From Candidatus Latescibacterota bacterium (GTDB taxonomy: Bacteria; Latescibacterota; UBA2968; GCA-2709665), in contig OZ242358.1 in NCBI GenBank assembly GCA_965208835.1, forward strand, positions 2,688,001 to 2,752,000: a DNA stretch of 64,000 nucleotides, read 5' to 3'. The notes beneath the pieces were generated by a model. The model saw only the letters and a program-made list of their open reading frames with translations, was not told the DNA's origin and ran no database searches. This document shows, in pieces, positions 15,038 through 53,967 of this stretch; position 1 is the stretch's first letter; each line of letters opens with the position of its first letter. A program made the translations under genes and the position numbers.

Positions 15038-15042
15038 GAGGG

Positions 15043-30623: not shown

Positions 30624-30687
30624 TGTGATCAACTCTCCCGAAGTTGGCGCACCGCGCTCCTGTGCGGGGCACGCACACGGAACCTAC

Positions 30688-32967
30688 CTATGATCCGTTT
30701 TCATTCCACAGCGCTTTCAGGACGTTTCCAGGAGACATCGGTAACACGTTCATCCGGATCCCCGCGGAACGGTAGATGGCATTGGCGAGAGCGGCCGGCG
30801 GCGGGACAATTGGCGCTTCTCCCACACCGCGCACACCGTAGGGATGACCGGGATTGGGAACTTCCACAATAATGGTTTCAATCATCGGAAGGTCCAGGCA
30901 GGTGGGCATCCGGTAATCAAGCAGGCTGGCGTTTGTCAATTCACCCTTGTTGTTGTACCAATACTCTTCGTTCAGGCCCCAGCCGATCCCCTGCGCCGCG
31001 CCCCCCTGCATCTGGCCCTCCACGTATGCGGGATGGATGGCCTTGCCCGCGTCCTGCACCATCGTGACCCTGAGAATGTCCACCTTGCCCGTATCCGGAT
31101 CGGTTTCGACGTCGGCGATCATCAGCGAGAATGCGCCGCCCACTCCCTGCGGATCGACGGTCGCACGCCCGACGACAGGACCGCCGGTCTCATTGAGTTT
31201 TCCAGCCAATTCTTTGAATGTCAAGGATTTCGACGGATCGGACCTGGATTTGAACGTGCCGTCTTCAAAGGCCACGTCGTCCGACGGAATCTCCCAGTAT
31301 TTCGCGGCACGCTCGACCATTTGGGCGATGATGTCCTGTGCTGCATTGTAGGCAGCCCAGCCCGTTGCGAAGGTGACCCGGCTGCCGCCGGTCACGTCGG
31401 TCTCCCCCACGCCGTCGGTATCGGCCACCACCGGATTCACGTCTTCCGCGGGAATGCCCAGCGGCTCGGCGAGCTGCATGGCCACGGACGTCCGGGTACC
31501 GCCGATATCGGTGGACCCTTCGACCAGGCTTACGGTGCCATCCGTATTTACAGACGCACACGCGCTGGACTTGAGACCCACGTTGAACCAGAAGCCGGAA
31601 GCCACGCCGCGACCCCGGTTTTTCCCCTCCAGGGACGCGTTGTAGTGTTCGCTCGTCATTGCTGCCTTCAACACTTCCTCGTGTCCGATACGGGGAAAGG
31701 TTGGACCGTCGGCCCTGCGCGTACCTTCTTTCGCCGTGTTCTTCAGGCGGAATTCAAGCGGGTCCTCGCCAAGCTTCTCGCAGATTTCGTCGACGATGGT
31801 CTCGGATGCAAAAGCCGCGTTCGTGGCACCCGGCGCCCTGTAAGCCATCGTCTGCGGCTTATTTACAACAACGTTGTACCCGTCGATGACCACGTTCTCG
31901 ATATCGTAGGGAGCGAAGATGCACATGGCGCCGGGTTCGGCCCACGCTCCGGCGAATCCACCCGACTCGTAGGCCAGGTAGGCCTCTGCAGCCACCAGTT
32001 TACCTTCGTTTGTGGCCCCCATCTTGACCCGAATGTAAGACCCGGGCGTGGGCCCGGTGGCCTTTAATACCTCGTCGCGGTTCATCACCATTTTCACCGG
32101 ATGGCCGGACTTTTTCGAAAGTACAGCGGCAACAGGTTCCAGGTAAACCCTGATCTTGCCGCCGAATCCACCGCCGATTTCGGTGGGGATCACCCGGATA
32201 TTCACAGGCGATATCTGCAGCAGACCCGCCAGCTGCTCGCGCACCGTAAACGATCCCTGGGTGCTGCACCAGACCGTAAGACGCCCGTCGGGGTTCCAGA
32301 GCGCCGTGGCATTCTGGGGTTCGATGTATCCCTGGTGCACCGTGTCGGTTACGAATTCCCTTTCGATGACCACGTCGGCCTTTGCGAAGCCCGATTCGAT
32401 ATCGCCCAGCTTGTGCTGAAAGTGCGTGGCGACATTGCTTGGCTTTCCAGTGTCTTCGCCCAGCGACTCCGTAGTGAGGGAATCATGCAGAAGCGGCGAT
32501 TCCGGATTCATTGCCTCCCGTACGTCGAGCAGAGGCTCCAGGACCTCGTATTCCACGTCGATCAGCCCCAGCGCCTCCTCCGCGATATGCGGGCTGGTTG
32601 CGGCCACGGCCGCCACCGCATGGCCGTCGTAGACTGCCTTTCCGTCGGCAAGCACGTTGGCGCGCAGGTCCACCATATTCGCCGCGCCTTCTCCCAGGTC
32701 CTCCACCTTCTTCTCGGGTACGGGAATGTCGTCGACGGTGGCAATGGCCCTGACGCCGTCGAGCGCTTCGGCCTTTCCGGTATTGATGGATAAAATGCGC
32801 GCGTGAGCATGAGGACTTCGCAATACTTTTCCGTAGATCAGGCCGGCCATCCGGACGTCGGCTCCATATATCGCACGCCCCGTAACCTTGTCCACGCCAT
32901 CGTGCCTGATCGGCCTGGTGCCCAGCACCTTGTACTCCTGAATTCCGAGATAGTCCTCAGTTGGCAT
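30688..32967 (-). CDS. Xanthine dehydrogenase family molybdopterin-binding subunit (paralog 1)
   Basis: Same motif set as paralog 2; the ATG at 32967 overlaps the stop of the Fe-S subunit (TGATG). Confidence 0.95.
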   Translation of the reverse strand: MPTEDYLGIQEYKVLGTRPIRHDGVDKVTGRAIYGADVRMAGLIYGKVLRSPHAHARILSINTGKAEALDGVRAIATVDDIPVPEKKVEDLGEGAANMVDLRANVLADGKAVYDGHAVAAVAATSPHIAEEALGLIDVEYEVLEPLLDVREAMNPESPLLHDSLTTESLGEDTGKPSNVATHFQHKLGDIESGFAKADVVIEREFVTDTVHQGYIEPQNATALWNPDGRLTVWCSTQGSFTVREQLAGLLQISPVNIRVIPTEIGGGFGGKIRVYLEPVAAVLSKKSGHPVKMVMNRDEVLKATGPTPGSYIRVKMGATNEGKLVAAEAYLAYESGGFAGAWAEPGAMCIFAPYDIENVVIDGYNVVVNKPQTMAYRAPGATNAAFASETIVDEICEKLGEDPLEFRLKNTAKEGTRRADGPTFPRIGHEEVLKAAMTSEHYNASLEGKNRGRGVASGFWFNVGLKSSACASVNTDGTVSLVEGSTDIGGTRTSVAMQLAEPLGIPAEDVNPVVADTDGVGETDVTGGSRVTFATGWAAYNAAQDIIAQMVERAAKYWEIPSDDVAFEDGTFKSRSDPSKSLTFKELAGKLNETGGPVVGRATVDPQGVGGAFSLMIADVETDPDTGKVDILRVTMVQDAGKAIHPAYVEGQMQGGAAQGIGWGLNEEYWYNNKGELTNASLLDYRMPTCLDLPMIETIIVEVPNPGHPYGVRGVGEAPIVPPPAALANAIYRSAGIRMNVLPMSPGNVLKALWNENGS

Positions 32968-33449
32968 CAGGCCGTCTCCTTCATCGTTCCGGCGGTGTCC
33001 ATCACCGCTCGGACGATCTTGTCGTATCCGGTGCACCGGCAGAGATTCCCTGCCAGCCACAGTCGAATCCGATGCTCGTCGGGTTCCGGTTCCCGATCGA
33101 GCAGCGCCTTCGCCGCCACGATAAACCCGGGCGTACATACACCGCACTGAAGCGCCGCATGTTCCAAGAACTTCTGCTGCAACGGATGCAGGCCCTCCGC
33201 GGTGGCCACCCCTTCAATTGTTGTGATTTCGCAGCCCTGTGCCTCAACCCCAAGCGCCAGGCAGGAGTTGATCACGCGTCCGTCGACGATGACGCTGCAG
33301 GCGCCGCAGTTGCCGTTCCCGCAACCCTCTTTGGCGCCGGTGAGACCCAGGTTGTCGCGAATCACCTCCAGCAGCGTATCGCGTGGTTCACACAGGAAAT
33401 CCGTTTCTTCTCCATTGATCGTCGTTGTGACATGAACTTTGCCGGCCAT
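32967..33449 (-). CDS. 2Fe-2S small subunit (CoxS/XdhC-like)
   Basis: GCGNGNCGAC, QCGVCTPG and NLCRCTGY motifs. Confidence 0.96.
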   Translation of the reverse strand: MAGKVHVTTTINGEETDFLCEPRDTLLEVIRDNLGLTGAKEGCGNGNCGACSVIVDGRVINSCLALGVEAQGCEITTIEGVATAEGLHPLQQKFLEHAALQCGVCTPGFIVAAKALLDREPEPDEHRIRLWLAGNLCRCTGYDKIVRAVMDTAGTMKETA

Positions 33450-33501
33450 CTTTTGCGGACTCCTTTATTCGCGAATGATCGGAAGATTCCTGAGACGTAG
33501 A

Positions 33502-34371
33502 CTATCGGGCGCGTTCCACCGCGCCGCAAACTGCGCGCTTGGTGAGGACGCCCGCCAGGTGAACCCTTTGCTCTATGGTCCCGCGCATGTCCGTAATGGG
33601 TCTGGCGGACTGCCGGGCGATCTCGGCCGCCATTTCGATCGATTGATCCGATACCTCGCTGCCGGCAAGTGCGGCCCCTGCCGCGGGCAGGTAAAGCGGG
33701 ATGGGCGCCACGGCGCCAACGGCGATCCGGGCGGACTCAAACGTGTTCTTCCCGGCGTTCAACACCACGGATGCCGCGGCGTTGACAACGGCGATGTCCA
33801 TTTCGTTGCGGGGAATGAACCGGAGGAAATACGCCCCGGAGTTCGCCGCGGGAGGTGGAAAATGTACAGAAACGAGGAATTCGCCGTCCTGCAGCACCGT
33901 CTGCCCCGGTGCCGTGCAGAAGTCCTCCACGGCGACCTCTCTTTCTCCCGCCGGGCCTGCGATCCTCGCGGTGGCCCCCAGAACGATGAGCGTTGGAATC
34001 GTATCCGCCGCGGGGGACGCATTGCAAAGGTTTCCACCGATCGTCGCCCGACCCTGGATCTGGATGGATCCGATGAGTTCCGTCGAATCCACGAGCGCCG
34101 GGTAATTCGACGCGACATGCTCGTTCTCGTAGATGTCGCAGCAGGACACCCCTGCGCCGATCGTCAATCCCTTCCGGGCGTCGAACGCGAGCTCGTTAGC
34201 CGCGGGAATTTTCTTTACATCCACCAGCACCTTCACCTGCCGCCGCCCCTCTTTCAACTGTGCAATGATGTCGGAACCACCGGCCAACATCCTGGCATCA
34301 GACCCGTTTTCCGAGAGTACGGCGACGGCTTCGTCTACAGATTGTGGCGCTACGTAATCGAACGCATACAA
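33502..34371 (-). CDS. FAD-binding medium subunit (CoxM-like)
   Basis: AGGSD, ATIGGNLCNASPAAD and PITDMRGT motifs; TTG start at 34371 with AGGAGG upstream. Confidence 0.94.
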   Translation of the reverse strand: MYAFDYVAPQSVDEAVAVLSENGSDARMLAGGSDIIAQLKEGRRQVKVLVDVKKIPAANELAFDARKGLTIGAGVSCCDIYENEHVASNYPALVDSTELIGSIQIQGRATIGGNLCNASPAADTIPTLIVLGATARIAGPAGEREVAVEDFCTAPGQTVLQDGEFLVSVHFPPPAANSGAYFLRFIPRNEMDIAVVNAAASVVLNAGKNTFESARIAVGAVAPIPLYLPAAGAALAGSEVSDQSIEMAAEIARQSARPITDMRGTIEQRVHLAGVLTKRAVCGAVERAR

Positions 34372-34400
34372 GGTTCGTTCCTCCTGTACTGATGACTCAA

Positions 34401-34430
34401 CAGCCCGTTGAAAAAGCCCGGGATTGCGGC
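34401..34430 (+). repeat. Terminal fragment of the inverted-repeat element
   Basis: CAGCCCGTTGAAAAAGCCC is identical to the reverse complement of the right end of the 58181-58300 copy, and is followed by GGGATTGCGGC. Confidence 0.72.
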
Positions 34431-34432
34431 TA

Positions 34433-34461
34433 AGGATAAAGCCTCTTTCGCGTGATGTCAA
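34433..34461 (-). promoter_or_regulatory. Sigma-70 promoter of the molybdoenzyme operon
   Basis: TTGACA-17 nt-TATCCT on the minus strand. Confidence 0.65.
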
Positions 34462-34557
34462 GGGTTTTCCGGGCGCCCGATACGGTCCGCCCAGCCACCG
34501 TGCGCATGGCGGCCGGAACTCCATTTCCCGGCGCGAAACCACACGACCTCTGGCGCC

Positions 34558-39108: not shown

Positions 39109-41022
39109 CTACTCTGAACTTTGCAATTCTCCCAGATTCACCTGGCAAATCTCGAATCCGGAGGCGAAATACAGCGTACGGTCAACGATCGTCAGGTACT
39201 CTCCACTCTCGTGAATCACGGGTATATACTCGACCTCATCGCCGCGGAATTCCAGATGACCGATCTTACCCCCGGCAGACGTCCACAACCGGCCTGCCGG
39301 CGCGTCCAACACCACCTCTCGACATCCCGGTGGTGCCGGGCCCAGATCCCGCAAATCGCCCTCCCGGGCATTCCAACCGTAGAATCTCCCCCGCTGCGAC
39401 GCAAGCACCTCTCCCGACGCCAGGACGACCAGCACCCTGGCGGCGCTTTCGCCGTCTGCAATGGGCTGCGATCGTGCGACCGTCAGACTGTCCATATCGA
39501 ATGACAGCAGGCGGCCGGTGGTCTGGGTGGGCGGCGTGGAGTTCGCGTCCGCGAAGATCTCGGTTCCGCAGTAGACCCGGCGGCGGTCCGGATCGACCTG
39601 AACCGAGTTCACCTTCTGGTCCTGCACGAGATGGCGCCAGACCAGGATCTCGCCTGTCTTCGGATCGATGCGGCTGAGCGCGCCGCCCAGATGTCCGTAT
39701 TCGGGGCTGGTAGTCATCCAGACGTACCGGCCGTCGTGCACCAGGCCCGTGGGTCTCATCTGGCCTTCGTGCTGCGCGCTGGCCAGCACGCGCGGGTTGT
39801 TGGGCCAGTCCGGCCTTGCTTCGGGATCGAATGCGGTCACACTGGAGGTTGTGTAGCTGCTCTGGAGGACCCGCCGGGTGATCGGCTCCCAGATAATCTG
39901 GTTGATCTGCCCTCCTCCCGGCGCCGCCCGCCCGAAATCCTCGCCGCCTCCGGTTTCCATGTCGACCATCCAGAACCGCTGATTGATGAACGGAGCGCCG
40001 AAGATCAATCCCCTTTCCGGCACGGGGCAAAGGGCGTGCGCGCTCATCGGGCCGGTACTTTCCAGGTCCATTCGGTCCGTGTTTCCCGTACCCGGATCGA
40101 ACCGGAGGGCGATGCCATTCAGGGACACGCCGCAGACGAAGCGCTCGCCCCAACGACGAATAGTTGCCGGTCCGCCTTCCGTCCAATCCGCCGCGGCAAC
40201 GCCCCATTCCGCCGCTTCGCGATCCAGAGTGTAGAGGTGACCATCTGACGCGCTGTAGGCGAAGAGCCTCCCGTTGACCACGCAGGCGCCGCTACCGACG
40301 TTACCACGCGCGGGACCCGGAATCCGCTCTTGCAGATCGAGGCCGGGATAAGACATAAAGTGAAGCTCGCCTCGTACAAATGCCGCCAATGTATGGTCGT
40401 CCCAGAAGAACGCGTCGGACGTCGAACCGACGCCCTGTATATTTTCCGGGGTATGGGACTCGGCGGTCATCGTTTGGGGGTCGAGCAGAACGAACCGCGC
40501 CTGCGGAATGTCTATTGCGAGGAGGATTCTCCCGTCCGGCGCCTCCATGACACGGTGTGCATAAAGGGCGGTCGGGTATTCCGCGTCGACGGGCCGAAAT
40601 ACCTTGACGAGCCGCGACTCCCGCCAGTCGTACACCCCCACGTCGCCAGGGGATGCCTCCCAGACCGCATACCTGTCCGTCACGCATCCGCCCCACGTAA
40701 TGGACTTCAATTCGCCGGTTACCAGAATTTTGAAGCGATCGGCAACAGGGTCGTACCGGACCAGGTCCCCGTTACCGCAGCCCAGATAGAGGCAACCGTC
40801 GGCTGCGGTTCTCAACATATAGGCGCCGGGTATTCCTTCGGGAAGACTCCGCAATCCCTTTGATCCGGAATCCGGATTCCAGAAATAAATCCTGCCCCCG
40901 GAACTACCGCCCCATACACTGCTGACCAGATGGTCTTCACCCTGAAACGAGACCTGCTCCACCTCGGCATTGATGAAGGGCAGCCTGCTGTGCGGTATGG
41001 CGTACCGTCTGATGGATGCCAT
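39109..41022 (-). CDS. Large hypothetical protein, probable tandem beta-propeller
   Basis: Recurrent units such as LVRYDP, LRFDPGTG, AFDP and RIDPKTG; AGGAG upstream of the ATG at 41022; no signal peptide evident. Confidence 0.75.
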   Translation of the reverse strand: MASIRRYAIPHSRLPFINAEVEQVSFQGEDHLVSSVWGGSSGGRIYFWNPDSGSKGLRSLPEGIPGAYMLRTAADGCLYLGCGNGDLVRYDPVADRFKILVTGELKSITWGGCVTDRYAVWEASPGDVGVYDWRESRLVKVFRPVDAEYPTALYAHRVMEAPDGRILLAIDIPQARFVLLDPQTMTAESHTPENIQGVGSTSDAFFWDDHTLAAFVRGELHFMSYPGLDLQERIPGPARGNVGSGACVVNGRLFAYSASDGHLYTLDREAAEWGVAAADWTEGGPATIRRWGERFVCGVSLNGIALRFDPGTGNTDRMDLESTGPMSAHALCPVPERGLIFGAPFINQRFWMVDMETGGGEDFGRAAPGGGQINQIIWEPITRRVLQSSYTTSSVTAFDPEARPDWPNNPRVLASAQHEGQMRPTGLVHDGRYVWMTTSPEYGHLGGALSRIDPKTGEILVWRHLVQDQKVNSVQVDPDRRRVYCGTEIFADANSTPPTQTTGRLLSFDMDSLTVARSQPIADGESAARVLVVLASGEVLASQRGRFYGWNAREGDLRDLGPAPPGCREVVLDAPAGRLWTSAGGKIGHLEFRGDEVEYIPVIHESGEYLTIVDRTLYFASGFEICQVNLGELQSSE

Positions 41023-41151
41023 TTCCACTCCTGTCATCCGGATCGCGCTGGTAAGTTCTTCAATGAAATCTCCAGCGTCGACCCGAATAGATTCAATGTC
41101 TATAAATTTAATTTACTGTGACACCGTAATATACCACGAATTAATCATGTT

Positions 41152-42925: not shown

Positions 42926-44791
42926 CTATTCAAATATCCACGTGCCGAAGTTTTCGAACTCCACGCCACGGTTGTAGCGGGTCTCCGACCACGTGCTGAA
43001 CTCGTGCACGCCGGTCGCGGGGCGTCGGTGGGTCCACCTGTGCAGGTTTCCCGTAAGACGGTCGCCCGGCTTCGGCGAGGCCATACCCAGCGTCCGCCAG
43101 GGAATAGCGAATTCAGCCGACCAGGAATCCGCTTCCTTCCGGGTAGCCGTTCGATATTCCCCCGACCACGTGGAATCACGACCGTAGACCTCCCGTCCGG
43201 TGGCAATATCGCTGCCGTGTTCACTTCGCCCCGTCCCGGTCCGTGAGTCCCAGCGCGCATTCGCGAGATCCAACCGGATATGAAAGTAGGCCGTCATCCC
43301 CTCGTCGGCGGCGACGGCCACCTCCACCTGATCGGCCCGCCCGCCCAGATCAGTGAACATTGTGGCGTGGGTCTTTTCCATCTCGGATTCATTGCACCGG
43401 AATGCAACGTAGAGCGCCGTATCATCGTACATCATGAGCGCTTCGGTTACCGTCTCCAGTTCTTTCACGCGTGCCGCGACGTAGTTGATGAAGGACTCCG
43501 AAGACCCCGCCTCTTTCCAAGCTGCGTCGGTCAATTCCCCGTCAATGTCGGGCGCAGCACCGCGCAGGCGGGGAACATGCAACGTCTTCGGTTGAATCGG
43601 CCGTTCCTCGGCTCTTGTCTTCCCCAGGTGGCCCTTCCGGGCAATCCCGTCGACGTCGAAACCCAGAGGCCTTCCCCGCGCGACTTTCTCCTTTGCAGAC
43701 CTGAGGGCGCTCTCCAGATAGCCGGGCAGGTTCCGTCCATTCCACCAGTCCATGCGTTCGCTGTAGAACCACACGTACCGGTCACTGCTCTTGAGCGCCC
43801 AGTAAGCATTGTGTTCCACCCAAAGCGCCCGTTCCTCCGGCGTGACATAGGTCGCTTCGGTATGGGTGGCCATGGTGCCGCAAAGATAGTCCCCGTAAAC
43901 GGCGTGCCCCGCCTGAACCTGCCGGCGGTACTTGCCGCGAAGCTCCGGGGGAATCAAAGCCTGGCCCGTCTGGTGGATGTTGTGATAGGTCCGGAAATAA
44001 TGCAGTTCGTTGTTGTTGTAATAAGAGTGCTCGTCCCCGTCCACGATTATGGTTCCCGGGCCGGCGGCCTCGAGCATGCCCGTCATGAACGCGGGCAGGA
44101 GGCCATAGTAGTCGGACTTGAGGATGGCTTCGCGCCTGGACGGGTCGGTCTCCAGCGCGGCCTCCTGAAAACGACGCATCGACGTCCAGAAGAGGGTGAG
44201 AATCACCGGATCGGTGAATTCCTCCTGGATCCGGTCCATATACTGCGCACCCCGTTTCCGCACAATCCGCTCGTACTCGGCGAAGCTCTTCTCCTCCCTG
44301 TGCTTCTGCCATTCATATTTCCACGCACAATACGGACGTCCCCAGTAGACGAACTCCGGATCGAAAGCAAGACCGACGCAGCCTCCCACCCGCGCGGCCT
44401 TCGCGCACCAGCCGATATTTCGCAGGAACGGGCTGTTCTCGCCCCACAGCGAATCGTCGAACCAGTCCACGTTGTCGTCGCAGTGGAAGTAGATGAAATT
44501 GTCGGTGAATTTCCGCCACTGGATTCTTCCCATTGCTTCGATCTCCGTCTCGGCGTCCGCTTCGTCCAGGTCCACCATGTAGAACGTATGGCCGAAGGTC
44601 GGGCGGATAAAGATCCCGTCGAAAGGGCGTTCCTCCATCTCCCGGATATGCTCCACCACATAGCTCGGCGGCCTCAGGTCCCACCCCATCTTGACCAGCT
44701 TCTTCGGAACGGTCCCGGAGTAACCCGTGAGCGGCATCGTGACCAACAGCACGCATATCAGCGAGCATACGAAAACCGTCCACTGTAACAT
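42926..44791 (-). CDS. Secreted hypothetical protein with C-terminal CBM9/DOMON-like sugar-binding domain
   Basis: Signal peptide; N-domain KKLVKMGWD...PFDGI and FDPE; C-domain APDIDGELTDAAW, YDDTALYVAF and WSAEFAIPW. Confidence 0.8.
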   Translation of the reverse strand: MLQWTVFVCSLICVLLVTMPLTGYSGTVPKKLVKMGWDLRPPSYVVEHIREMEERPFDGIFIRPTFGHTFYMVDLDEADAETEIEAMGRIQWRKFTDNFIYFHCDDNVDWFDDSLWGENSPFLRNIGWCAKAARVGGCVGLAFDPEFVYWGRPYCAWKYEWQKHREEKSFAEYERIVRKRGAQYMDRIQEEFTDPVILTLFWTSMRRFQEAALETDPSRREAILKSDYYGLLPAFMTGMLEAAGPGTIIVDGDEHSYYNNNELHYFRTYHNIHQTGQALIPPELRGKYRRQVQAGHAVYGDYLCGTMATHTEATYVTPEERALWVEHNAYWALKSSDRYVWFYSERMDWWNGRNLPGYLESALRSAKEKVARGRPLGFDVDGIARKGHLGKTRAEERPIQPKTLHVPRLRGAAPDIDGELTDAAWKEAGSSESFINYVAARVKELETVTEALMMYDDTALYVAFRCNESEMEKTHATMFTDLGGRADQVEVAVAADEGMTAYFHIRLDLANARWDSRTGTGRSEHGSDIATGREVYGRDSTWSGEYRTATRKEADSWSAEFAIPWRTLGMASPKPGDRLTGNLHRWTHRRPATGVHEFSTWSETRYNRGVEFENFGTWIFE

Positions 44792-45018
44792 GTCGCGACC
44801 CCTTGTCTGGGCTTCAGGTCTATACCGGATGGCCACGTATCGCGCTGTGACAGCTGTTTCACGGCCGGCCAACGGTATTCCGATTCGAAATAGGCCATCC
44901 CGTCCAGATCGGCGTCAGGGCTGTGAAAGACGATATTGTCCGGTTGCGACGTCAACTCCCAGAGCATGGCCAACCCTTCCGTGGCCAGGAAGTTCTCATT
45001 GCAAATGTCGTTGTTCAT
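44758..45018 (-). CDS. Possible small hypothetical protein or gene remnant
   Basis: GGAG upstream of the ATG and non-shadow amino acid composition; overlaps the start of the next gene. Confidence 0.3.
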   Translation of the reverse strand: MNNDICNENFLATEGLAMLWELTSQPDNIVFHSPDADLDGMAYFESEYRWPAVKQLSQRDTWPSGIDLKPRQGVATCYSGRFSYAR

Positions 45019-45147: not shown

Positions 45148-45224
45148 TGGTCGGGGCGCCCGGATTCGAACCGGGGGCCTCCTGCTCCCGAAGCAGGCGC
45201 TCTACCGGACTGAGCCACGCCCCG
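45148..45224 (-). tRNA. tRNA-Pro (CGG)
   Basis: CGGGGCGTGGCTCAGTCCGGTAGAGCG CCTGC TT CGG GA GCAGG ... GGTTCGAATCC GGGCGCCCCGA CCA. Confidence 0.97.
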
Positions 45225-45359
45225 AATTCGACTCCTAAAATACAAGAAACCGTACCGGTGGCAAGGAAAATCTCCGAATTGGCAAACGCAGAGCGCTCGG
45301 TCCGGAAGTCGTCGCCCGCGACATCTCCGGGCGGAACCCAAAAGCGCCGCGGCTGTCTT

Positions 45360-46289
45360 TCAACGGCGGCTTTCAGATAGCCGCTCCAGCACAACCACCA
45401 TTGCGAAACCCGTTGCCGCCAGCCCGATGGCGGCGGCCAGATCCCCGTCGAACATCCGGGGCAGCACGTTGATTTGCATTAGCGGGACCTCGGCGCCACA
45501 CGATTCGAGAGGCGACGATACGTCCGTTTTCCACGGCCAGACTTTCCTTAAGGAACCGGCCATTAACCCGGTCAACGCGGCTACGGTAACGTCGTGGTGC
45601 CGTTTGAAAATCCATGCCAGAACCCGCGCAAAACTGAGGATCCCGACGGCGGCGCCCGAGGCGAACAGGAAGATGGGGAAAAGCTCCCGGTCGTTCAATG
45701 CCGCCAGGAGATACTCGTACTTGCCCAGCAGCACCAGAATAAACGAACCGGAGATACCCGGCAGAATCATCGCCGATATGGCAACGACGCCGCAGATGAA
45801 AAGGAACCAGGGCGAATCCGGCGTCTTCACCGGCACGAGGCCGACGACAACATAGAACAGCAATCCTGAAGCGACCGCAGCGATCCAGGCGCGACCGCGC
45901 CATGCGACCACCCGTTTCCGAACGACGAAGACGGACGCCGCAACCAGTCCGAAGAAAAACGCCCAGATCAATTCCGGTTCATGTTGGAGCATCCACTGAA
46001 TACCACGCGCCAGTGTCGCCACAGCCAGCAGAATGCCCCCGAGAACGGGTCCCAGAAACCGCCACGGAACCCTGTTCAGCGCCTCCCTGAATCTGAGGAC
46101 CACCAGCAATCCGGCGAAGCGGCGATCGAAGGAACGGATGGAATGGATCAGTTCCTCATAGATTCCCGTAACGAATGCGATTGTGCCGCCGGATACGCCG
46201 GGAACCACGTCCGCCGCGCCCATGCAGGCACCGCGCAGGCCGAGGCCCGCGTACGCCTTCCAACCCCGCCGCACGATTTCAGGCTCCAT
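45360..46289 (-). CDS. DUF368 membrane protein (undecaprenyl-phosphate translocase family)
   Basis: MGAADVVPGVSGGTIA, AMILPGISGS and GSLRKVWPW motifs. Start approximate. Confidence 0.93.
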   Translation of the reverse strand: MEPEIVRRGWKAYAGLGLRGACMGAADVVPGVSGGTIAFVTGIYEELIHSIRSFDRRFAGLLVVLRFREALNRVPWRFLGPVLGGILLAVATLARGIQWMLQHEPELIWAFFFGLVAASVFVVRKRVVAWRGRAWIAAVASGLLFYVVVGLVPVKTPDSPWFLFICGVVAISAMILPGISGSFILVLLGKYEYLLAALNDRELFPIFLFASGAAVGILSFARVLAWIFKRHHDVTVAALTGLMAGSLRKVWPWKTDVSSPLESCGAEVPLMQINVLPRMFDGDLAAAIGLAATGFAMVVVLERLSESRR

Positions 46290-46411
46290 TTCCGCCACGC
46301 ATTCCCGATCTCGGAATAATTCGGTGGCAACGTTGCGGCGACCGGCGGTGTCGAAACCCGTGCCGCCCGCTTCGCCAACGGAACGGGCGCGACCATGTGG
46401 ACCGCCACTCG

Positions 46412-46449
46412 AAAAACAGGGACTCACGATCCACGTCGTAAGTCCCTGT
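46412..46449 (-). terminator. Hairpin terminator after tRNA-Pro(GGG)
   Basis: ACAGGGACTTACGA...TCGTGAGTCCCTGT followed by TTTT. Confidence 0.72.
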
Positions 46450-46454
46450 CAGTA

Positions 46455-46531
46455 TGGTCGGAGCGACTGGATTTGAACCAGCGACCCCTATCACCCCAAG
46501 ATAGTGCGCTACCGGGCTGCGCCACGCTCCG
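46455..46531 (-). tRNA. tRNA-Pro (GGG)
   Basis: CGGAGCGTGGCGCAGCCCGGTAGCGCA CTATC TT GGG GT GATAG ... GGTTCAAATCC AGTCGCTCCGA CCA. Confidence 0.96.
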
Positions 46532-46671: not shown

Positions 46672-47916
46672 TTATTCGGTCTTGTAGTAAAGAGAATTAT
46701 AGTACCGTTCCGCGATGACTTTGCACAGGATATTGACGACGGCCGCAACCGGGATTGCAATGAGCATGCCGATGAAACCCCAGAAATGGGCGCCGACAAC
46801 CAGCGCGAACATCACCCAGACCGGATGCAGACCGACGCGCTGACCCACGACGCGGGGAGATAGAAAATTACCCTCGATACTTTGAACGACGACGAAAACG
46901 CCGACGACCTTGAGCAGGCTGCCGGCCGGGTCGGCATCCAATAACGCGACGAGGCACGCGACGCTGAATGCGACCGCGATTCCTATGTACGGAATCAGGT
47001 TGAAGAGCCCGGCCATGAGTCCCAGCAGAACCGCGTATCGGATCCCGAACAGCATGAGGCCGGTGGCGGTAAGCACCGCAATAAAGGTGCAGACCAGCAT
47101 CTGCCCGCGGAGGTATTGACCCAGAATCTCGTCCACCCGCACCAGGAATTCCCCGATGGACGCCGCGTGCCGCCGCGGAAGGACTCGAGCGACAGTCCTG
47201 ACAATGCGGTCGTAGTCCTTGATCATGTAGAAGGTCACAAAGGGGATCATCAGAAAATTCAGTAGCGTTGCCAGCCCGGAGCCCAAACCCTTAAGGGCCG
47301 CGGTTGTCTGTTCCGCGATGAGTTCACCCAGCTTCGGCAACCGCTCCAGAAGCAGCTGTTGTATCTGACCCTTCGGCAGGTTTACGCCGATCGACTGCAG
47401 CCAGTTGAATATCTGATCGTAGAACTGCTTCAGCATCGCTGCATAGACGGGAATGCGCCGCCCGAAATCGTGAATTTCCTGTGTGACCAAAGGAATGACC
47501 ACGATGCCGATCCCTGACAACGCCCCCAGTATCACGACTACGATCAGGGCGATGGCGATCGTGCGCGACATCCAGCGTTCCATCAGACCGACAAGCGGCG
47601 ACACCAGATAGGCCAACACAAACGAGGTCACAAACGGCCATAACAACCCGGCCAAATCTCCCATCAGCCAGGCGCCGAACAGCAGGACCACCACAACCCC
47701 GACGCCGGCTTCGAACCTTATCCCCTTTCGGACCATGACAAGGATGGCCAGCAGCGTGAGGCCGATCAGGAAGGGGGAGAGATCCTGATGGAGCACAAAG
47801 AGGAAACCCACCAGAAACAACAGAATCGCCATGCGAAAAAACGGCCTGTCGCCGGAAAGACGGCCGTCCGGATTATCCTCGCAATGCCCCGGTTTTGACT
47901 GTGATTTCGTATCCAT
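46672..47916 (-). CDS. AI-2E family transporter
   Basis: LAYLVSP, YLRGQ, NLIPYIG, EGNFLSP..VG..VGLHP and GMLIAIP motifs. Confidence 0.93.
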   Translation of the reverse strand: MDTKSQSKPGHCEDNPDGRLSGDRPFFRMAILLFLVGFLFVLHQDLSPFLIGLTLLAILVMVRKGIRFEAGVGVVVVLLFGAWLMGDLAGLLWPFVTSFVLAYLVSPLVGLMERWMSRTIAIALIVVVILGALSGIGIVVIPLVTQEIHDFGRRIPVYAAMLKQFYDQIFNWLQSIGVNLPKGQIQQLLLERLPKLGELIAEQTTAALKGLGSGLATLLNFLMIPFVTFYMIKDYDRIVRTVARVLPRRHAASIGEFLVRVDEILGQYLRGQMLVCTFIAVLTATGLMLFGIRYAVLLGLMAGLFNLIPYIGIAVAFSVACLVALLDADPAGSLLKVVGVFVVVQSIEGNFLSPRVVGQRVGLHPVWVMFALVVGAHFWGFIGMLIAIPVAAVVNILCKVIAERYYNSLYYKTE

Positions 47917-47934: not shown

Positions 47935-48786
47935 TCATTGTCCCGATTTCGCCTGCTCTTCATCCTCCGACACGACCAGAAACGTCTCTGACTGGGTGTC
48001 TACATTGAATATGCGAAGGTAGCGGCTGTGGCGAAGCCCGCCCACCTCTCCGATCAACTCCAGAACGCCGTCGCCGTCGATATCCAGATATCCCAGGCGG
48101 TCTCCAAAACCGTCGGCAAAGTACCACTCCAGGATCAACGTATCCATGTCGACGACCACACCCGTATTCAACACGGCCTCCAGGCCGTAGTCGTCGTCGA
48201 AATCCGCGATCACCATGCTCTGCGCGTGAATCGATTCTTTCGGTATCACGTCGCTGATTCCCTGTTCGAAAAGCTCCAGACAGTCGTATACATGGATGTG
48301 CATCTCGCTATGGCCCAGACTCTTGACCAGATAGACGAGTTCCAGTTGAGGATCATCGTCCACATTCGCGATTTCCATGTGGGTGATATCCTCCTGGATC
48401 TGCCATATAAAACTGTAGTCCTCCGCACTGTATAGCACAATACGTGTAAAGGTGTACGCGACAATTTCGAATTCACCGTCTGCATCCACGTCTTCCACAA
48501 ATACCCCCAGGACTGCAGATCCCAGTGGTTCGCTCTTCCACTCCTCGTATCCGCGCCCGTCGACGTATCTTACAACGTACAGGTTTCCCTGTGCGTCTCC
48601 GTAAACGACCCGCGGATTGGCTTCGTCACCCGACGGGAGGATGCGAATCTGAGGCAGTTCATCTATGCTTCCGCCCCAGCGGATGTGCCGGTTGTCGCGA
48701 AGAAGATACCAGTCCGCGCTGCCGGCTTGAACCGGTACGTACGCCGAAATCCAGAACACCGCGACTATGCAGATGTAATGTTTCAT
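47935..48786 (-). CDS. Secreted FG-GAP/VCBS-repeat protein (no heme domain)
   Basis: Signal peptide; Ca-binding-type loops DVDADGEFEI, NVDDDPQLEL, DFDDDYGLEA and DIDGDGVLEL; paralog of the upstream gene. Confidence 0.85.
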   Translation of the reverse strand: MKHYICIVAVFWISAYVPVQAGSADWYLLRDNRHIRWGGSIDELPQIRILPSGDEANPRVVYGDAQGNLYVVRYVDGRGYEEWKSEPLGSAVLGVFVEDVDADGEFEIVAYTFTRIVLYSAEDYSFIWQIQEDITHMEIANVDDDPQLELVYLVKSLGHSEMHIHVYDCLELFEQGISDVIPKESIHAQSMVIADFDDDYGLEAVLNTGVVVDMDTLILEWYFADGFGDRLGYLDIDGDGVLELIGEVGGLRHSRYLRIFNVDTQSETFLVVSEDEEQAKSGQ

Positions 48787-48788
48787 GT

Positions 48789-49958
48789 CTATCGGTCCTT
48801 CAAATCGGAAAGAATCGAATAGATCTCCGTATTCGCCCGTATTGCTTCCTCGCCATCGGGAACGGTACGCTGGTGGCACGCCAGGCATACCTCCCGCAGT
48901 TCCGGTTGGTGACAGTTTGTGCACTCGTTCACATTGCCGTACGGCGCAAAGAACGGCACCTCCCGCAGATGATAGGCCTCCTCGTCGATACGTCCGCCAG
49001 GGTTCTGATGCCCGACGGTACTGGTTACACCCTCTCTCTCGTGGCAGTCCTGGCAGAACGCCCTGAGTTTGTGGCAGGAAGCGCAGTCCGCAATCCTTCC
49101 CGACACCTCCGCTCCGTGGTTGCCGCGAAAATCGGAGGTGATTGAAATCACCCTGATGTGTCTCTCGGGCCGCAAACTTCCGTACTCACCTATCAGATCC
49201 GGCGTGCCATCGTAGTTCACGTCCACATACCCCATACGGTCGCATCCACCGAAGTGCCATTCGAAGTCGAGAGATCTCGCGTCGATCACCACGCCGGTGT
49301 TGATGGCAATTTCAAGCTCGGCGTCTTCGTCCAGGTTCGCGACGACGATGCTTTCCCCGATCAGGGTCTGCTCTCCGCGTCTCTCCTCCGCGAGATGCCT
49401 GGCGTCGTAGACGAACAACCTCGAGTCGCGTTCTCCCGACGCGTCCTCCGCTTCTCCGAGAAAGATCAATTCCAGTTGTGGGTCGCCATCCAGGTTTTCG
49501 ATCGCCATCGTCGAGATTGTCGCATACTCGTCATCTTTGCTGCGCCAGATCAACTCGTACGAATCCGCATTGTAAATCACGATGTCACCCCAATGCGAAT
49601 ATGCTACGATCTCGAGAACACCGTCCGCGTTGACGTCCGCTACGAAAACCTCTGCCACGGACGATTTCAAGGACTGGCTGACCCAGACCTCCCGGGAACG
49701 CCCCTCGGTGAACTCGAGTACGTGCAAAAGGCCCTGGCGGTCTCCGTAGACCAGTCGCTTTACCGAGTCGGCCGGAGCGGGAATAATCCTGACAGTGCGC
49801 ATTTCGCCAAGTGCGCCGCCGAAGGACACATCCTTTCCCCTTGCCCATCGGAACCACTCCATGTCCCCGGCGTGCGCCAGGGTCAGACCCGCGCACAGGC
49901 AGGCCAACACCCAGAATACATTTCGAGCAAATACCTCCCGCACGCTTCTTACCTCCAC
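48789..49958 (-). CDS. Secreted FG-GAP/VCBS-repeat protein fused to a C-terminal tetraheme c-type cytochrome-like domain
   Basis: Signal peptide; DVNADGVLEI, NLDGDPQLEL, NLDEDAELEI and DVNYDGTPDL loops; CASCH, CQDCH, CTNCH and CLACH. The GTG start abuts the mlaD stop. Confidence 0.85.
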   Translation of the reverse strand: MEVRSVREVFARNVFWVLACLCAGLTLAHAGDMEWFRWARGKDVSFGGALGEMRTVRIIPAPADSVKRLVYGDRQGLLHVLEFTEGRSREVWVSQSLKSSVAEVFVADVNADGVLEIVAYSHWGDIVIYNADSYELIWRSKDDEYATISTMAIENLDGDPQLELIFLGEAEDASGERDSRLFVYDARHLAEERRGEQTLIGESIVVANLDEDAELEIAINTGVVIDARSLDFEWHFGGCDRMGYVDVNYDGTPDLIGEYGSLRPERHIRVISITSDFRGNHGAEVSGRIADCASCHKLRAFCQDCHEREGVTSTVGHQNPGGRIDEEAYHLREVPFFAPYGNVNECTNCHQPELREVCLACHQRTVPDGEEAIRANTEIYSILSDLKDR

Positions 49959-50864
49959 TCAGAACAGGCTGACGTCCACGTTGAGATAGCGTTTGGGGTC
50001 CTCTTTGATGTCGTTGATAAGGCTGTCTACGGAGACAAGCGTCCGCCGGAGGTCTTTGTACAGTGTGTCGTCCTGAATAAGGCGGCCGAGCGTGCCCTCG
50101 CCGCGTCGAAGTCTTCCGCTGACCTCGTTCAGATCGGAAAGTGATCTCCTGAGCGATTCCAGTACGGTCTCGATGTTGCGCGTCACCCCATCCAACCTGT
50201 CGGTCGTGAGCCGCATATTCTCGACAACCCGGCGCACATCGGGCCGATTCTCGCCGATCATGTCGCGTGCGTTGAGGGTGGCCGCGGCCGCGGAATCCAG
50301 GACTGACGCGAGCGTCTCGCGGTTTTCGGAAACCGTCTGCTTGAGAATCGCGGCCGCGCTGTCCAGATTGGCCAGCAGGACCTCGACATGCCCCAGATTC
50401 CTGTCGGCAAGAACCGCTTCCAGACGCTGAGCCAGCACGCCGGCATGTTCCGCTATCTCCTCGATGCCGCCTTCAGACGACCCGCGAAGGGTGTCGTGGT
50501 CGGCGTACACCCTGTCGGAGGCCGTTCCTACCTGCACGTCGATCATCTTGCCGCCCAGCAATCCCTCGGCCTGTAACAGAACCTTCGAGTCCCGAGGCAG
50601 ATTTCGAAATTCGGCAAAACCGATACTTACAAGGGGCAAGCCGTGCGTAAGTCCGATATCGAGGACCTTGCCGGCCCAGACACCCCGGATGAACACCGGG
50701 TCTCCAGGCTGCAGGCCTGGTACACTGTCGAAAAAGACATGCAACTGATATCCACCTGCCGCTCCGGCGTAATTCTCAGACAGCCATGCCGCACCCAGTA
50801 CGGCAATCGCGATCGCCAGAAAAATGACGGCACCCAGAAACAACTGTTTTTCCCGACTTATCAT
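49959..50864 (-). CDS. mlaD: MCE-domain protein
   Basis: N-terminal TM helix, GLQPGDPVFIRGV..G.V, GLLG, a long helical region, and GEGTLGRLIQD..LY. Confidence 0.9.
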   Translation of the reverse strand: MISREKQLFLGAVIFLAIAIAVLGAAWLSENYAGAAGGYQLHVFFDSVPGLQPGDPVFIRGVWAGKVLDIGLTHGLPLVSIGFAEFRNLPRDSKVLLQAEGLLGGKMIDVQVGTASDRVYADHDTLRGSSEGGIEEIAEHAGVLAQRLEAVLADRNLGHVEVLLANLDSAAAILKQTVSENRETLASVLDSAAAATLNARDMIGENRPDVRRVVENMRLTTDRLDGVTRNIETVLESLRRSLSDLNEVSGRLRRGEGTLGRLIQDDTLYKDLRRTLVSVDSLINDIKEDPKRYLNVDVSLF

Positions 50865-50876
50865 TTGTCACCTGTA

Positions 50877-51620
50877 TCAGATCTTTCCCTGAACGAAAAG
50901 GTCGTAGACATCGTTCCCGCTCCTCTCGATCTCCTCCGGCGTCCCTTGAATGGCGGTTTCTCCGTTGTAAAGCAGGGCGATCCTGTCCGATATTCTACGG
51001 GCAAGCGGCAGGTCGTGCGTAACCACAACCGAAGTTACGTCCAGCTCATTCTGAAGCTTCAGAATGTAATCGCCTACCACCGCGGCCGTACCGGGATCCA
51101 GACCCGTTGTAGGCTCGTCATATAGAATGAAATCAGGCGACATTGCAATTGCCCTCGCCAGTGCGGCGCGCTTCCGCATGCCGCCGGACAGCTCGACGGG
51201 CATCGTCTGCTCCGCCCCGGAAAGACGAACCGCACCCAGGCATACGCCGACCCGTTCCTCAATCTCTTTCTCGGACATCCGGGTATGCATCCGAAGCCCG
51301 AATGCCACGTTTTCCTTTACATTCATTGAATCGAAAAGCGCGGCGGACTGAAACAGGACGCCAATCCTTTTGCGCAACGCCTTCAGATCTCTGTAACTGA
51401 TTGAGTTCATGTCGTGACCGTCCACCGTGACCCGACCGTGATCGGCCTGCTCAATGCCAATTATGTGTTTCAGTGTCACACTCTTGCCACAACCGCTGGG
51501 GCCCAGGATGGTGGTTACCTCCCCCCAGCGGACTTCCAGATCCATACCCGTCAAGACCTGCAATTCATCGAATCGTTTATGCACTGATTCGAATTCGACG
51601 GCTATGCCATTCTTTGCCAT
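50877..51620 (-). CDS. mlaF: MCE-system ABC ATPase
   Basis: GPSGCGKS, FQSAALFDSM, LSGGMRKR and YDEPTTGLDP motifs. Confidence 0.93.
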   Translation of the reverse strand: MAKNGIAVEFESVHKRFDELQVLTGMDLEVRWGEVTTILGPSGCGKSVTLKHIIGIEQADHGRVTVDGHDMNSISYRDLKALRKRIGVLFQSAALFDSMNVKENVAFGLRMHTRMSEKEIEERVGVCLGAVRLSGAEQTMPVELSGGMRKRAALARAIAMSPDFILYDEPTTGLDPGTAAVVGDYILKLQNELDVTSVVVTHDLPLARRISDRIALLYNGETAIQGTPEEIERSGNDVYDLFVQGKI

Positions 51621-51689
51621 TATCTTGTCTCATTCACCGAAACAGCACCGCGACGGGGCCCGATTTACGCTCAAGCCTTCAAACCGCCG

Positions 51690-52463
51690 TCAATAAAGCA
51701 ATGTCTTGGTCAGGAAGTAGTCCAGGATCAGAATGGACGCAGCCGAAATCACGACCGCCGCCGTCGCCGCCCGGCCCACGCCTTGAGCCCCGCCCGTTGC
51801 CGTCAGACCGGCGTAGGAACCGTAAAAGGTGATCATGCCCCCGTAAACCACGGACTTGATGACGCATACCACGAGATCGTACGAACTCCAGTCCAGCTTC
51901 ATTCCCTTCACAAAATCGGCAACCGTGATGTCCATCAGCAGGATCGACATCACGTAACCCGCATAGATCGACGTAAAGGCGGAGAAGACCACCAGCACGG
52001 GGATCATCACAATACCCGCGAGAACCCTCGGCATGAGGAGGTACCCAACCGGATCCACTGCCAGTGAAATCAGTGCATCCACCTGCTCGGAGACCTTCAT
52101 TGTACCCACTTCAGACGCAATGCCCGCACCCACCTGACCTGCCAGGACCAGCCCCATGAGAATCGGCGCCAGTTCCAGCAGCACCGATCGGACAACGATG
52201 CTGCCGACCATGTAGTCAGGTACATAGTCCTCCATCTGGTAGGCCATCATCGTGGATACGGCCATGCCGCTGAAGGCCGAAACAAGGATTACCAGTGACA
52301 GAGAATTCACACCAACCGAGTAACACTGCTCGATGATCTGCCGCCTGTAGAAGTAGACGTTCGGCAGTTCGCCAAGAAACCGTCGGAAATACCCGTACAT
52401 CGAATAGGTAAGCAAAAGAAACCGGGCGGTCTTCATGCCCACAAATTCCATCAGGCGCTTCAC
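51690..52463 (-). CDS. mlaE: MCE-system permease
   Basis: GVNSL, ELAP, EVGTMKVSEQVDAL and GGAQGVGRAAT.AVV motifs. Confidence 0.93.
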   Translation of the reverse strand: MKRLMEFVGMKTARFLLLTYSMYGYFRRFLGELPNVYFYRRQIIEQCYSVGVNSLSLVILVSAFSGMAVSTMMAYQMEDYVPDYMVGSIVVRSVLLELAPILMGLVLAGQVGAGIASEVGTMKVSEQVDALISLAVDPVGYLLMPRVLAGIVMIPVLVVFSAFTSIYAGYVMSILLMDITVADFVKGMKLDWSSYDLVVCVIKSVVYGGMITFYGSYAGLTATGGAQGVGRAATAAVVISAASILILDYFLTKTLLY

Positions 52464-52749: not shown

Positions 52750-53631
52750 TCAGACCTGGTCCTGCCACGACTCTTCGGCGCGTACGCGTTGCCTGAAATA
52801 TCGGCGCAGTTTGCCGAGGGCGCGATTTCGGATCTGCCGTACGCGTTCCCGCGTGACACCCAGTTCCCTGCCGATTTCTCCAAGCGTCCTTCGATCTCCG
52901 CCCTCCAGGCCGAAATAAGAGCGGATGACGTTTGCCTCCCGCGGATCGAGGCTGCGCGCGAGAGAGGCGCTGATCAGTTCGGTGCGGTCTCTTTCCAGGA
53001 CCTCAAGATCGGGATAGGCTCCGGCACAGTCGAGCACCTGCAGCAATGTCTTCTCGCCTTCGGCGTCAATCGGAGATTCCAGGGAGAGGTCCGACCGGGC
53101 ACACCGAAGCGCGCGTTCAGCGCGCTTTCGACTGATCTTCATATCGCTGGCCACCTCTTCGACCGTCGGCACCCGCCCCAACTCCTGAGTCATCTGGCCC
53201 CATCGCCGGGCCATGCGATCCATGTCCTCCTGCCGGTTGGCAGGCATAGACACCGCGGACGTCCGTTTCAGCGCATTCAATATCGCCTGGCGAATCCACC
53301 AGACGGCATAGCTGATGAACTTGTACCCCCGGGTCTCGTCAAAACGGTTCAGGGCCTCCATCAACCCCATGTTGCCTTCGGCGATCAGATCCGAGAGTGG
53401 CACCCCCCGGCCCTGGTATTCGAGGGCGACGCTTACGACGAATCGCAAATTGGACGTAACGAGCCGTTCGATCGCCTTTTGATCGCCCTTTCGGGCCCGC
53501 GCGAGCGTTTCCATCTCCTCTTTACGCGTCATCGGGGGATAACGGCGCAGTTCCTTCAGGTATCGCTGTACGGAGGCGTCGTGCGGCAGACGTTTCCTTG
53601 TCGGTTCCTGGAAGTCCAAAGCTGAGTACAA
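52750..53631 (-). CDS. RpoD/SigA-family sigma-70 factor lacking region 1.1
   Basis: YLKEL, SNLRFVVSVA, DLIAEGNMGL, RFDETRGYKFISYAVWWIRQ and TRERVRQI motifs. Start uncertain (TTG at 53631 or 53619). Confidence 0.92.
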   Translation of the reverse strand: MYSALDFQEPTRKRLPHDASVQRYLKELRRYPPMTRKEEMETLARARKGDQKAIERLVTSNLRFVVSVALEYQGRGVPLSDLIAEGNMGLMEALNRFDETRGYKFISYAVWWIRQAILNALKRTSAVSMPANRQEDMDRMARRWGQMTQELGRVPTVEEVASDMKISRKRAERALRCARSDLSLESPIDAEGEKTLLQVLDCAGAYPDLEVLERDRTELISASLARSLDPREANVIRSYFGLEGGDRRTLGEIGRELGVTRERVRQIRNRALGKLRRYFRQRVRAEESWQDQV

Positions 53632-53839
53632 CCCCTTTTGCGGCGGAGAAGCCGCCGTCCAATCCCGCCGGCGTTTCCGGAACGGATGTGGATCGACGTA
53701 CGCATGGAACGATCTGGAATCACGAAAGTTCCAATTTCTTCGGATCCCGTACACGAGTCGCGGGCTGACTCCCGCCGCAAACGCGGGGGTCGCACCCCGG
53801 GTTCGATAGCACCGATAACCCGGAGTCGGTTTACAAACT

Positions 53840-53877
53840 AAAGAAAGAAACGAGCCGTCGAACAATCGACGGCTCGT
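53840..53877 (-). terminator. Intrinsic terminator after tRNA-Arg
   Basis: ACGAGCCGTCGA-TTGT-TCGACGGCTCGT followed by TTCTTTCTTT. Confidence 0.85.
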
Positions 53878-53889: not shown

Positions 53890-53967
53890 TGGTGGGACAT
53901 ACAGGATTCGAACCTGTGACCTCTGGTTCCGGAGACCAGCGCTCTATCCAGACTGAGCTAATGCCCC
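53890..53967 (-). tRNA. tRNA-Arg (CCG)
   Basis: GGGGCATTAGCTCAGTCTGGATAGAGCG CTGGT CT CCG GA ACCAG ... GGTTCGAATCC TGTATGTCCCA CCA. Confidence 0.96.

Follow-up and report, generated by a model that had tools for sequence, protein, structure and literature searches.

In diderm bacteria, mammalian cell entry (MCE) systems carry lipids and other hydrophobic molecules from one membrane to the other. What the needle-type systems have at their outer end is still under study, PqiC/PA3214 rings and β-barrels on long MlaD forms being the cases at hand. A phylogenomic survey of Mla systems treats MlaEFD as the ancestral core and describes long MlaD forms (PMC10665443, as far as its available parts go). 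Needle-type systems are represented by PA3211-PA3214 of Pseudomonas aeruginosa, where, according to the accessible portions of PMC13631591, PA3213 forms a helical needle of ~170 Å and the product of the fourth gene, a PqiC-like lipoprotein, makes a ring around the tip of the needle and binds the last seven residues of PA3213. Here, we analyzed 64,000 nucleotides of a Candidatus Latescibacterota genome (assembly GCA_965208835.1, contig OZ242358.1, positions 2,688,001 to 2,752,000; hereafter the window), in which mlaE, mlaF and mlaD are followed by two genes for predicted secreted β-propellers, one of them extended by a putative tetrahaem domain.

Our preferred interpretation, tentative and held with slightly less than even confidence, is that these propellers serve a bridge-type MCE transporter as accessory subunits in the periplasm, and that the tetrahaem domain is a clade-specific redox add-on with one unusual haem. 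The genes, of which the last two are named here as open reading frames (ORFs), lie on the minus strand within positions 52463-47935 of the window, in the order mlaE, mlaF, mlaD, ORF4, ORF5:

51690..52463, minus strand: mlaE, MCE-type ATP-binding cassette (ABC) transporter permease, 257 amino acids (Pfam MlaE)
50877..51620, minus strand: mlaF, ABC ATPase, 247 amino acids (Pfam ABC_tran)
49959..50864, minus strand: mlaD, long form, 301 amino acids (Pfam MlaD)
48789..49943, minus strand: ORF4, predicted secreted FG-GAP-like propeller with a putative tetrahaem domain, 384 amino acids
47935..48786, minus strand: ORF5, predicted secreted paralogous propeller without haem domain, 283 amino acids

The first three genes encode an MCE/Mla-type ABC transporter core, with a permease, an adjoining ATPase and an MCE-domain protein all found. 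MlaE matches PF02405 MlaE (1e-62, 212 bits, cut-off 22.5) and, under the curated cut-off, the NCBIfam MlaE family (6.6e-55). MlaF matches PF00005 ABC_tran (2.1e-32) and the NCBIfam MlaF model (7.4e-56, under the cut-off and one among many ABC models that match), while MlaD matches PF02470 (2.1e-12, 47.6 bits, cut-off 25.1) and solved MlaD chains (E 2.8e-7). These matches and coordinates bear out the gene order given in an earlier interpretation of the same DNA made from its letters alone (hereafter the sequence-only reading). The intergenic gaps, from mlaE to ORF5, measure 69, 12, 15 (or 0) and 2 nucleotides. The absence of any gap between mlaD and ORF4, as first proposed, holds for the longest ORF4 reading frame, whose start GTG 49958 is abutted by the mlaD stop TGA, but not for the likelier start, GTG 49943: this second GTG is preferred because the database orthologs are 384 amino acids long and a GGAGG lies upstream (the GTG being 7 nucleotides past it), and it leaves a spacing of 15 nucleotides. 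ORF5 indeed begins 2 nucleotides past ORF4 (stop 48791-48789, ATG 48786). No credible terminator was found inside the operon; the promoter and terminator scan gave counts at or below those of shuffled sequence and is hence uninformative.

MlaD comprises an N-terminal membrane helix, one MCE domain, a helical C-terminal region of ~175 amino acids and a short hydrophobic C-terminal peptide, and it ends in ...DPKRYLNVDVSLF. Over residues 4-294 it can be aligned with the PDB chain 13hr_I (residues 4-301 of 312 amino acids, E 2.4e-5), which, from the chain size and from what the available text of PMC13631591 says, is taken to be PA3213. The C-terminal helical part searched alone reached E 0.077 only, and the helical region matches Mce4_CUP1 at 3e-7 (30.7 bits, under the cut-off of 32.6). 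Judged by its layout and this alignment, the window MlaD is of the long needle type, like PA3213. Pfam families of MlaC, MlaA, MlaB/STAS and PqiC type were all absent among the 57 window ORFs scanned. The sequence-only reading had remarked on the missing MlaC; the observation is correct for these ORFs, but the absence is expected rather than odd, since MlaD is of the long needle type. In their operon, the two propeller genes occupy the slot of the PA3214-type lipoprotein gene. Both in the window and in the orthologous locus of another Latescibacteria chromosome (L001, described below), MlaD ends in (D/N)PKRY(L/F) plus a few hydrophobic residues. A likeness between the MlaD C-terminus (NVDVSLF, 49962-49982, minus strand) and the C-terminal strand of ORF5 (NVDTQSETFL, 47977-48006, minus strand) was dropped as probably due to chance, because the corresponding ends in L001 (6950-6977) are SFSVF for MlaD and DVDLQSESFL for the propeller.

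ORF4 can be divided as follows:

49869..49943, minus strand: signal peptide of ORF4, residues 1-25, with an AHA/GD end (read from sequence)
49134..49865, minus strand: predicted propeller of ORF4, residues ~27-270, five repeats (AlphaFold2 and Foldseek)
49242..49256, minus strand: His230-Phe-Gly-Gly-Cys234, a fused-clade-specific loop before the last blade (alignment)
48792..49130, minus strand: putative tetrahaem domain of ORF4, residues 272-384, with CASCH287, CQDCH297, CTNCH341 and CLACH353, plus His276, His312 and His325

As modeled, ORF4 and ORF5 are β-propellers of about five blades. AlphaFold2 (AF2) gave ORF4 a predicted local distance difference test score (pLDDT) of 83-98 over residues ~41-250, with 19 strands, and ORF5 a mean pLDDT of 85.8 and a predicted template modeling score of 0.82, with 20 strands in five groups of four; DSSP assigns the 19-20 strands to five groups of four, in step with the five sequence repeats. 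Structure prediction of both proteins, which had been suggested as a check, thus returned confident propellers, and Foldseek returned propellers only, the top 50 PDB matches listed per model all being propeller-containing chains by description. ORF5 superposed best on Sqt1 (TMq 0.56) and on Bap1, a matrix protein of Vibrio (TMq 0.55), and the matches of ORF4 include ITFG2, integrin alpha-V and BamB. The top matches are portions of rings with seven or eight blades; propellers with five blades did not rank high. Four FG-GAP-type loops had been proposed for ORF4: four DxDxDG-type loops (DVNADG, NLDGDP, NLDEDA and DVNYDG) are present, but the propeller has about five blades or repeats, the fifth and degenerate one, VYGDRQG, lying upstream of the four loops. 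Pfam FG-GAP_3 falls just under its cut-off of 26.9 bits in both window proteins ORF4 and ORF5 (25.1 and 23.3 bits) and lies above it in the orthologs P0040 (42.8), P0056 (46.0) and P0061 (43.1). ORF5 is the paralog that the sequence-only reading took it for, aligning with ORF4 motif for motif (38% identity over 268 residues, E 7e-60) and ending in an acidic tail, VVSEDEEQAKSGQ.

Both proteins carry type I signal peptides, residues 2-19 of that of ORF4 forming an N-terminal helix in the AF2 model. A lipobox is unlikely in ORF4 because its homologs lack the Cys, and a loose lipobox pattern occurs in 9 of 100 short relatives, mostly within signal-peptide cores; lipoprotein anchoring of the propellers was rejected on these grounds.

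A HMMER search over 1.84 billion representative proteins retrieved 1151 sequences at E<=1e-3, 163 at E<=1e-10 and 10 at E<=1e-30, the last count indicating that the close propeller family is small, inside a huge world of FG-GAP/VCBS repeats. Typical members are secreted, 250-300 amino acids long and end in ...ExFL or ...REKW. The names attached to close homologs of ORF5 point to Candidatus Latescibacteria, with one record labelled Gemmatimonadota, and the plasmid collection held no match to ORF5 or P0063. Four more distant relatives (P0062, P0066, P0070 and P0073; 32-36% identical) bear N-terminal low-complexity extensions of 200-320 amino acids rich in Pro, Ala and Thr and end in ...DIDQRREKW, which suggests that the same module of five repeats is tethered in them. 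In a maximum-likelihood tree built on 39 rows of the propeller part and rooted by midpoint only, three groups separate: the fused clade, with its three deep lineages (support 100/96), the ORF5-type proteins with P0055 and P0039 (96/84), and single unfused proteins including that of L001 (99/97). ORF4 and ORF5 are therefore old paralogs, as the tree puts them in different subfamilies, and a recent tandem duplication was rejected since the ORF5-type rows group apart from the fused clade. The ORF4-type and ORF5-type clusters have five "longest contig" lengths in common (5453092, 2432719, 55898, 15114 and 36815), so that the pair co-occurs in several assemblies.

To place the propellers in other genomes, a scan was run with a 19-row alignment, in which five loci were confirmed out of 607 matched stretches, the genome of the window itself not being among them. 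Among the matches listed, one of the five loci is a true ortholog, L001, where mlaE-mlaF-mlaD is followed by a single gene for an unfused propeller of 298 amino acids whose start overlaps the mlaD stop by 4 nucleotides. Compared with the window, MlaD is 42% identical over its full length and the propeller 46%. Restriction-modification genes lie upstream of this block and an unknown ORF of 570 amino acids downstream; the flanks thus differ and only the four-gene block is common to the two genomes. The four other loci (L002-L005) encode generic multi-repeat FG-GAP proteins, 23-35% identical, which stand outside the family count. The link between propeller homologs and mla genes on which the sequence-only reading depended is accordingly present in L001 and absent from these four distant loci.

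The same reading had cast the haem-less paralog as the partner of ORF4. We predicted a complex of mature ORF4 with four haems and mature ORF5, using custom alignments, and obtained a score of 0.60 (0.60, 0.65 and 0.58 in the runs), the best of three controls scoring 0.00; contact agreement was at least 76% and partner pLDDT at least 79. Of 157 solved complexes, 116 reached the mark used for such scores, as did 2 of 215 mismatched pairs, and a score <=0.60 occurred in only 18 of the 157 solved complexes and in both passing mismatches, these calibration counts being only rough. This single pass lends weak support to a pairing of ORF4 with ORF5.

The second half of our interpretation concerns the C-terminal domain of ORF4. 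Its four CxxCH motifs are found where the sequence-only reading had placed them (minus strand: CASCH at 49085-49071, CQDCH at 49055-49041, CTNCH at 48923-48909 and CLACH at 48887-48873). The six-frame translation of the window (127,996 codons) contains five CxxCH in total, four of them inside one 72-residue stretch of ORF4, a clustering that is far beyond chance. Across the three lineages, the domain has seven conserved His and no conserved Met. A spare His had been proposed before each pair of motifs; His276 and His325 fit that description, and the third one, His312, goes beyond it. Bis-His ligation of all four haems would take eight His, one more than are conserved. Searched alone, the domain matched Pfam Cytochrome_C7 at E 0.0022 (18.2 bits, cut-off 24.8) and Cytochrom_c3_2 at E 1.4. 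A single-sequence search of the PDB aligned it with residues 42-128 of 19hc (E 9e-4), four motifs and one His being aligned, and a profile search yielded multihaem cytochromes only, none significant. Its ESM Atlas neighbors, which are leads only, all fall in class III, within c3/c7/paired-CXXCH clusters (0.80-0.83). We read the domain as a putative tetrahaem module, compact and of class III type, to which no curated family corresponds.

The one CxxCH elsewhere in the window, CTPCH (40547-40561, minus strand), lies in an ORF of 642 amino acids (39109-41037, minus strand) with no Pfam match at E 1, which could be a monohaem protein or a chance occurrence.

Conservation of the fusion was followed in 13 fused proteins, namely 11 clusters plus P0040 and P0203, compared with 26 unfused relatives. 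The 11 close clusters are 80-100% identical and each 384 amino acids long, while P0040 (366 amino acids, about 50-52% identical) and P0203 (383 amino acids, 48% identical) have the same C-terminal domain; the fused proteins thus form three deep lineages, ~50% identical to one another. Exactly four CxxCH are present in all 13 and none in the 26 unfused relatives, and the three extra His are likewise kept in 13/13. An assembly chimera, raised beforehand as one way in which the fusion could be spurious, is ruled out by these 13 proteins in three lineages. The fusion also leaves a mark on the propeller: Cys234 occurs in 13/13 fused proteins against 0/26 unfused ones, where the position is Gly in 26/26, and His230 in 13/13 against 1/26 (P0208). 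The loop reads W-H-F-(G/S)-G-C-D in fused proteins, with a 2-residue deletion, compared with ...G-F-G-(D/E) in unfused ones. This co-variation counts as three observations, one per lineage, rather than thirteen. Since propeller residues co-vary with the fusion, it suggests that the haem domain packs against the Cys234 loop; and since three spare His serve four haems, Cys234 and His230 are candidates for the eighth axial ligand, so that one or the other may be the missing haem ligand.

On these observations, a mechanism can be proposed. MlaE and MlaF would constitute the inner-membrane ABC part of a Latescibacteria-type MCE transporter, and MlaD would form a hexameric needle bridging the periplasm, as PA3213 does, which would make a soluble MlaC shuttle unnecessary. 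The secreted propellers would be accessory subunits of this needle, ORF4 and ORF5 acting as a pair of old paralogs that are functionally analogous to PqiC/PA3214 and unrelated to them; they would bind MlaD. Haem would be attached covalently to the four motifs of ORF4 and ligated by its conserved residues, the eighth ligand being Cys234/His230, or else one haem would have an open coordination site. The haem module would then transfer electrons or sense the redox state at the transporter. Its role in transport could thus be electron transfer with the hydrophobic cargo or redox sensing that gates transport, both being compatible with the data. Complete electron transport chains and cytochrome c oxidases are reported from some Latescibacteria-like genomes (PMC5596340, in its available parts).

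Several results weigh against this scheme. On the transporter side, the evidence for linkage between propeller and mla genes comes from two genomes of one phylum, and no mla genes lie near L002-L005. The eight N-terminally extended relatives scanned have low-complexity linkers only and no MCE domain, so that no fusion ties the propeller and MCE families; a PqiC-like outer-membrane anchor is unsupported since the propellers lack a lipobox; and a complex score such as that of ORF4 and ORF5 misleads in most cases, except where the pairing was already probable. On the haem side, the domain stays below all curated cut-offs of Pfam and NCBIfam, a PDB search with a profile built from five haem domains reached E 0.011 at best and missed 19hc, the haem domain has a pLDDT <50 in the AF2 model computed without haem, and the 64-kb window contains no Ccm/Ccs cytochrome c maturation genes.

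The propeller genes could be mere passengers, ORF4 and ORF5 being an independent periplasmic redox protein or protein pair, such as an electron carrier or a haem-based sensor, that shares the mlaFED transcript without touching the transporter. Beyond the generic FG-GAP loci unrelated to mla and the lack of any MCE-propeller fusion, this explanation gains from the ESM Atlas neighbors, as small multihaem domains are typical of soluble electron carriers. We nevertheless regard it as rather unlikely: the mlaD-propeller junction is tight or overlapping in two genomes despite different flanks and 42-46% identity, and the ancestral unfused form keeps its linkage to mla without any redox domain. If the propellers were passengers, the finding would be reduced to a small multihaem cytochrome in a new domain fusion.

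Alternatively, the propellers could replace MlaC as soluble shuttles that carry hydrophobic cargo through the periplasm or deliver it to the MCE ring, instead of being built permanently into a bridge. This would agree with the cleavable signal peptides of ORF4 and ORF5, with their lack of a lipobox and with the absence of the MlaC family from the scanned ORFs. MlaD, however, is of the long needle type, and such proteins provide a continuous conduit in PA3213, PqiB and Mce1 (in the parts of the literature available); moreover, neither the models nor Foldseek indicates a lipid pocket, the matches being generic propellers only. We consider the shuttle decidedly improbable.

Least credible of all, and in our view very improbable, is that the Cys/His-rich C-terminal domain binds zinc or forms disulfides instead of carrying haem, since the missed cut-offs, the profile search without a significant solved relative, the lack of maturation genes in the window and weak zinc-ribbon and B-box matches (E 1-5) are offset by the C-x-x-C-H spacing kept four times in 13/13 proteins of three lineages, with His always after the second Cys, by the export of the protein, by the fact that every named weak sequence or feature match is a multihaem cytochrome, and by the presence of a single other CxxCH in six frames of 64 kb.

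Returning to propellers as accessory subunits of the transporter, a bolder version of this proposal would make the system the first redox-linked MCE transporter. A heterodimer of the propeller-cytochrome and its haem-less paralog would sit on the MlaD needle, with a His/Cys-ligated or open-site haem between the cytochrome domain and Cys234/His230 through which it would detect redox or sulfur species or chemically modify the cargo (e.g. a quinone or an oxidized lipid), lipid traffic being gated by, or coupled to, electron transfer. This version is speculative, and we hold it to be quite unlikely. Our literature search found no paper joining FG-GAP with MlaD, FG-GAP with CXXCH, or MlaE/MlaD with multiheme; in the available parts of the Mla survey PMC10665443 the words propeller and cytochrome have 0 occurrences, and propeller, FG-GAP and MCE are absent from those of a preprint on modular multihaem evolution (10.1101/2025.05.29.656830). 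The partnership of a propeller-cytochrome with an MCE transporter thus appears to be undescribed. If true, a soluble propeller partner would broaden the known MCE architectures, in a candidate phylum without cultured members, and its haem-bearing version would be the first hint of an MCE transporter tied to redox chemistry. The Cys/His switch alongside the haem domain offers a concrete single-residue handle.

Downstream of ORF5, the operon may extend by a sixth gene:

46672..47916, minus strand: AI-2E-family transporter gene (Pfam AI-2E_transport, 1.9e-66)

Its first ATG is 18 nucleotides past ORF5, with no convincing terminator between the two, and it may belong to the mla transcript; no such gene follows the propeller gene in L001. 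On the other side, the operon is preceded by a sigma-70 family gene (52750-53865), just upstream of which lies a tRNA-Arg (53890-53967). The Rfam scan of the window returned four tRNAs only, including, within 45148-46531 on the minus strand, a tRNA-Pro CGG and a tRNA-Pro GGG that flank a polyprenyl-phosphate transporter-like gene (VCA0040-like, 4.6e-89; NCBIfam 3.7e-97, under the cut-off). Elsewhere on the minus strand, positions 28320-34542 hold two adjoining genes for large molybdopterin-binding subunits of the xanthine dehydrogenase/aldehyde oxidase type (770 and 819 amino acids) and a gene for a flavin adenine dinucleotide (FAD)-binding subunit, and positions 13591-16500 an RtcB RNA ligase gene (1.3e-170) beside an archease gene, RtcB and archease being a known functional pair. 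GC skew is negative in every 2-kb window over positions 1-64000 (cumulative -2.88) and nearly all long ORFs have the minus orientation, a pattern expected inside a single replichore. A CBM9-domain protein (42926-44872, minus strand) and a heparinase II/III / alginate-lyase-like protein (7868-9961, minus strand) are also encoded, and they fit the polysaccharide-degrading lifestyle reported for the phylum (PMC5596340, in its available parts).

When compared with known systems, the locus shares MlaE, MlaF and the MCE-domain core with the canonical proteobacterial MlaFEDB-MlaC-MlaA pathway, and it differs in the length of MlaD (301 amino acids against 183 in E. coli) and in that the partners MlaB, MlaC and MlaA are not seen among the scanned window ORFs. 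The propellers resemble FG-GAP/VCBS propellers (integrin alpha, ITFG2, Bap1) and BamB-type scaffolds in their DxDxDG-type loops, their sub-threshold to significant FG-GAP_3 matches and their predicted fold, but they have ~five blades in ~220 amino acids instead of seven or eight; in particular, the seven-bladed ring of integrin alpha is not matched, ORF4 and ORF5 showing ~five four-strand groups. Within our literature search, no FG-GAP/VCBS propeller is described next to an MCE gene or in fusion with a cytochrome. The C-terminal domain of ORF4 is comparable to class III cytochromes c (c3/c7, and the c3-like N-terminal domain of the nine-haem cytochrome 19hc) by its four CxxCH, which fall into two pairs within ~75 residues and have His in between, and it departs from them by scoring under every curated cut-off, by its seven His instead of eight and by the propeller in front. 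PA3211-PA3214 and the related Brucella Mpc, termed "chimeric Mla-Pqi", combine an MlaE-like permease and an ABC ATPase with a single-MCE protein of ~300 amino acids, which has a long needle of helices and a short peptide at its C-terminus; at least one accessory gene closes the operon (PMC13631591 and PMC12436622, in their available parts). The window has the same set of parts, its needle being predicted. Their accessory protein is a PqiC-like outer-membrane lipoprotein forming an octameric ring; in the same place, the Latescibacteria locus has soluble FG-GAP-like propellers without lipobox, present as two paralogs, one of which bears four haem motifs.

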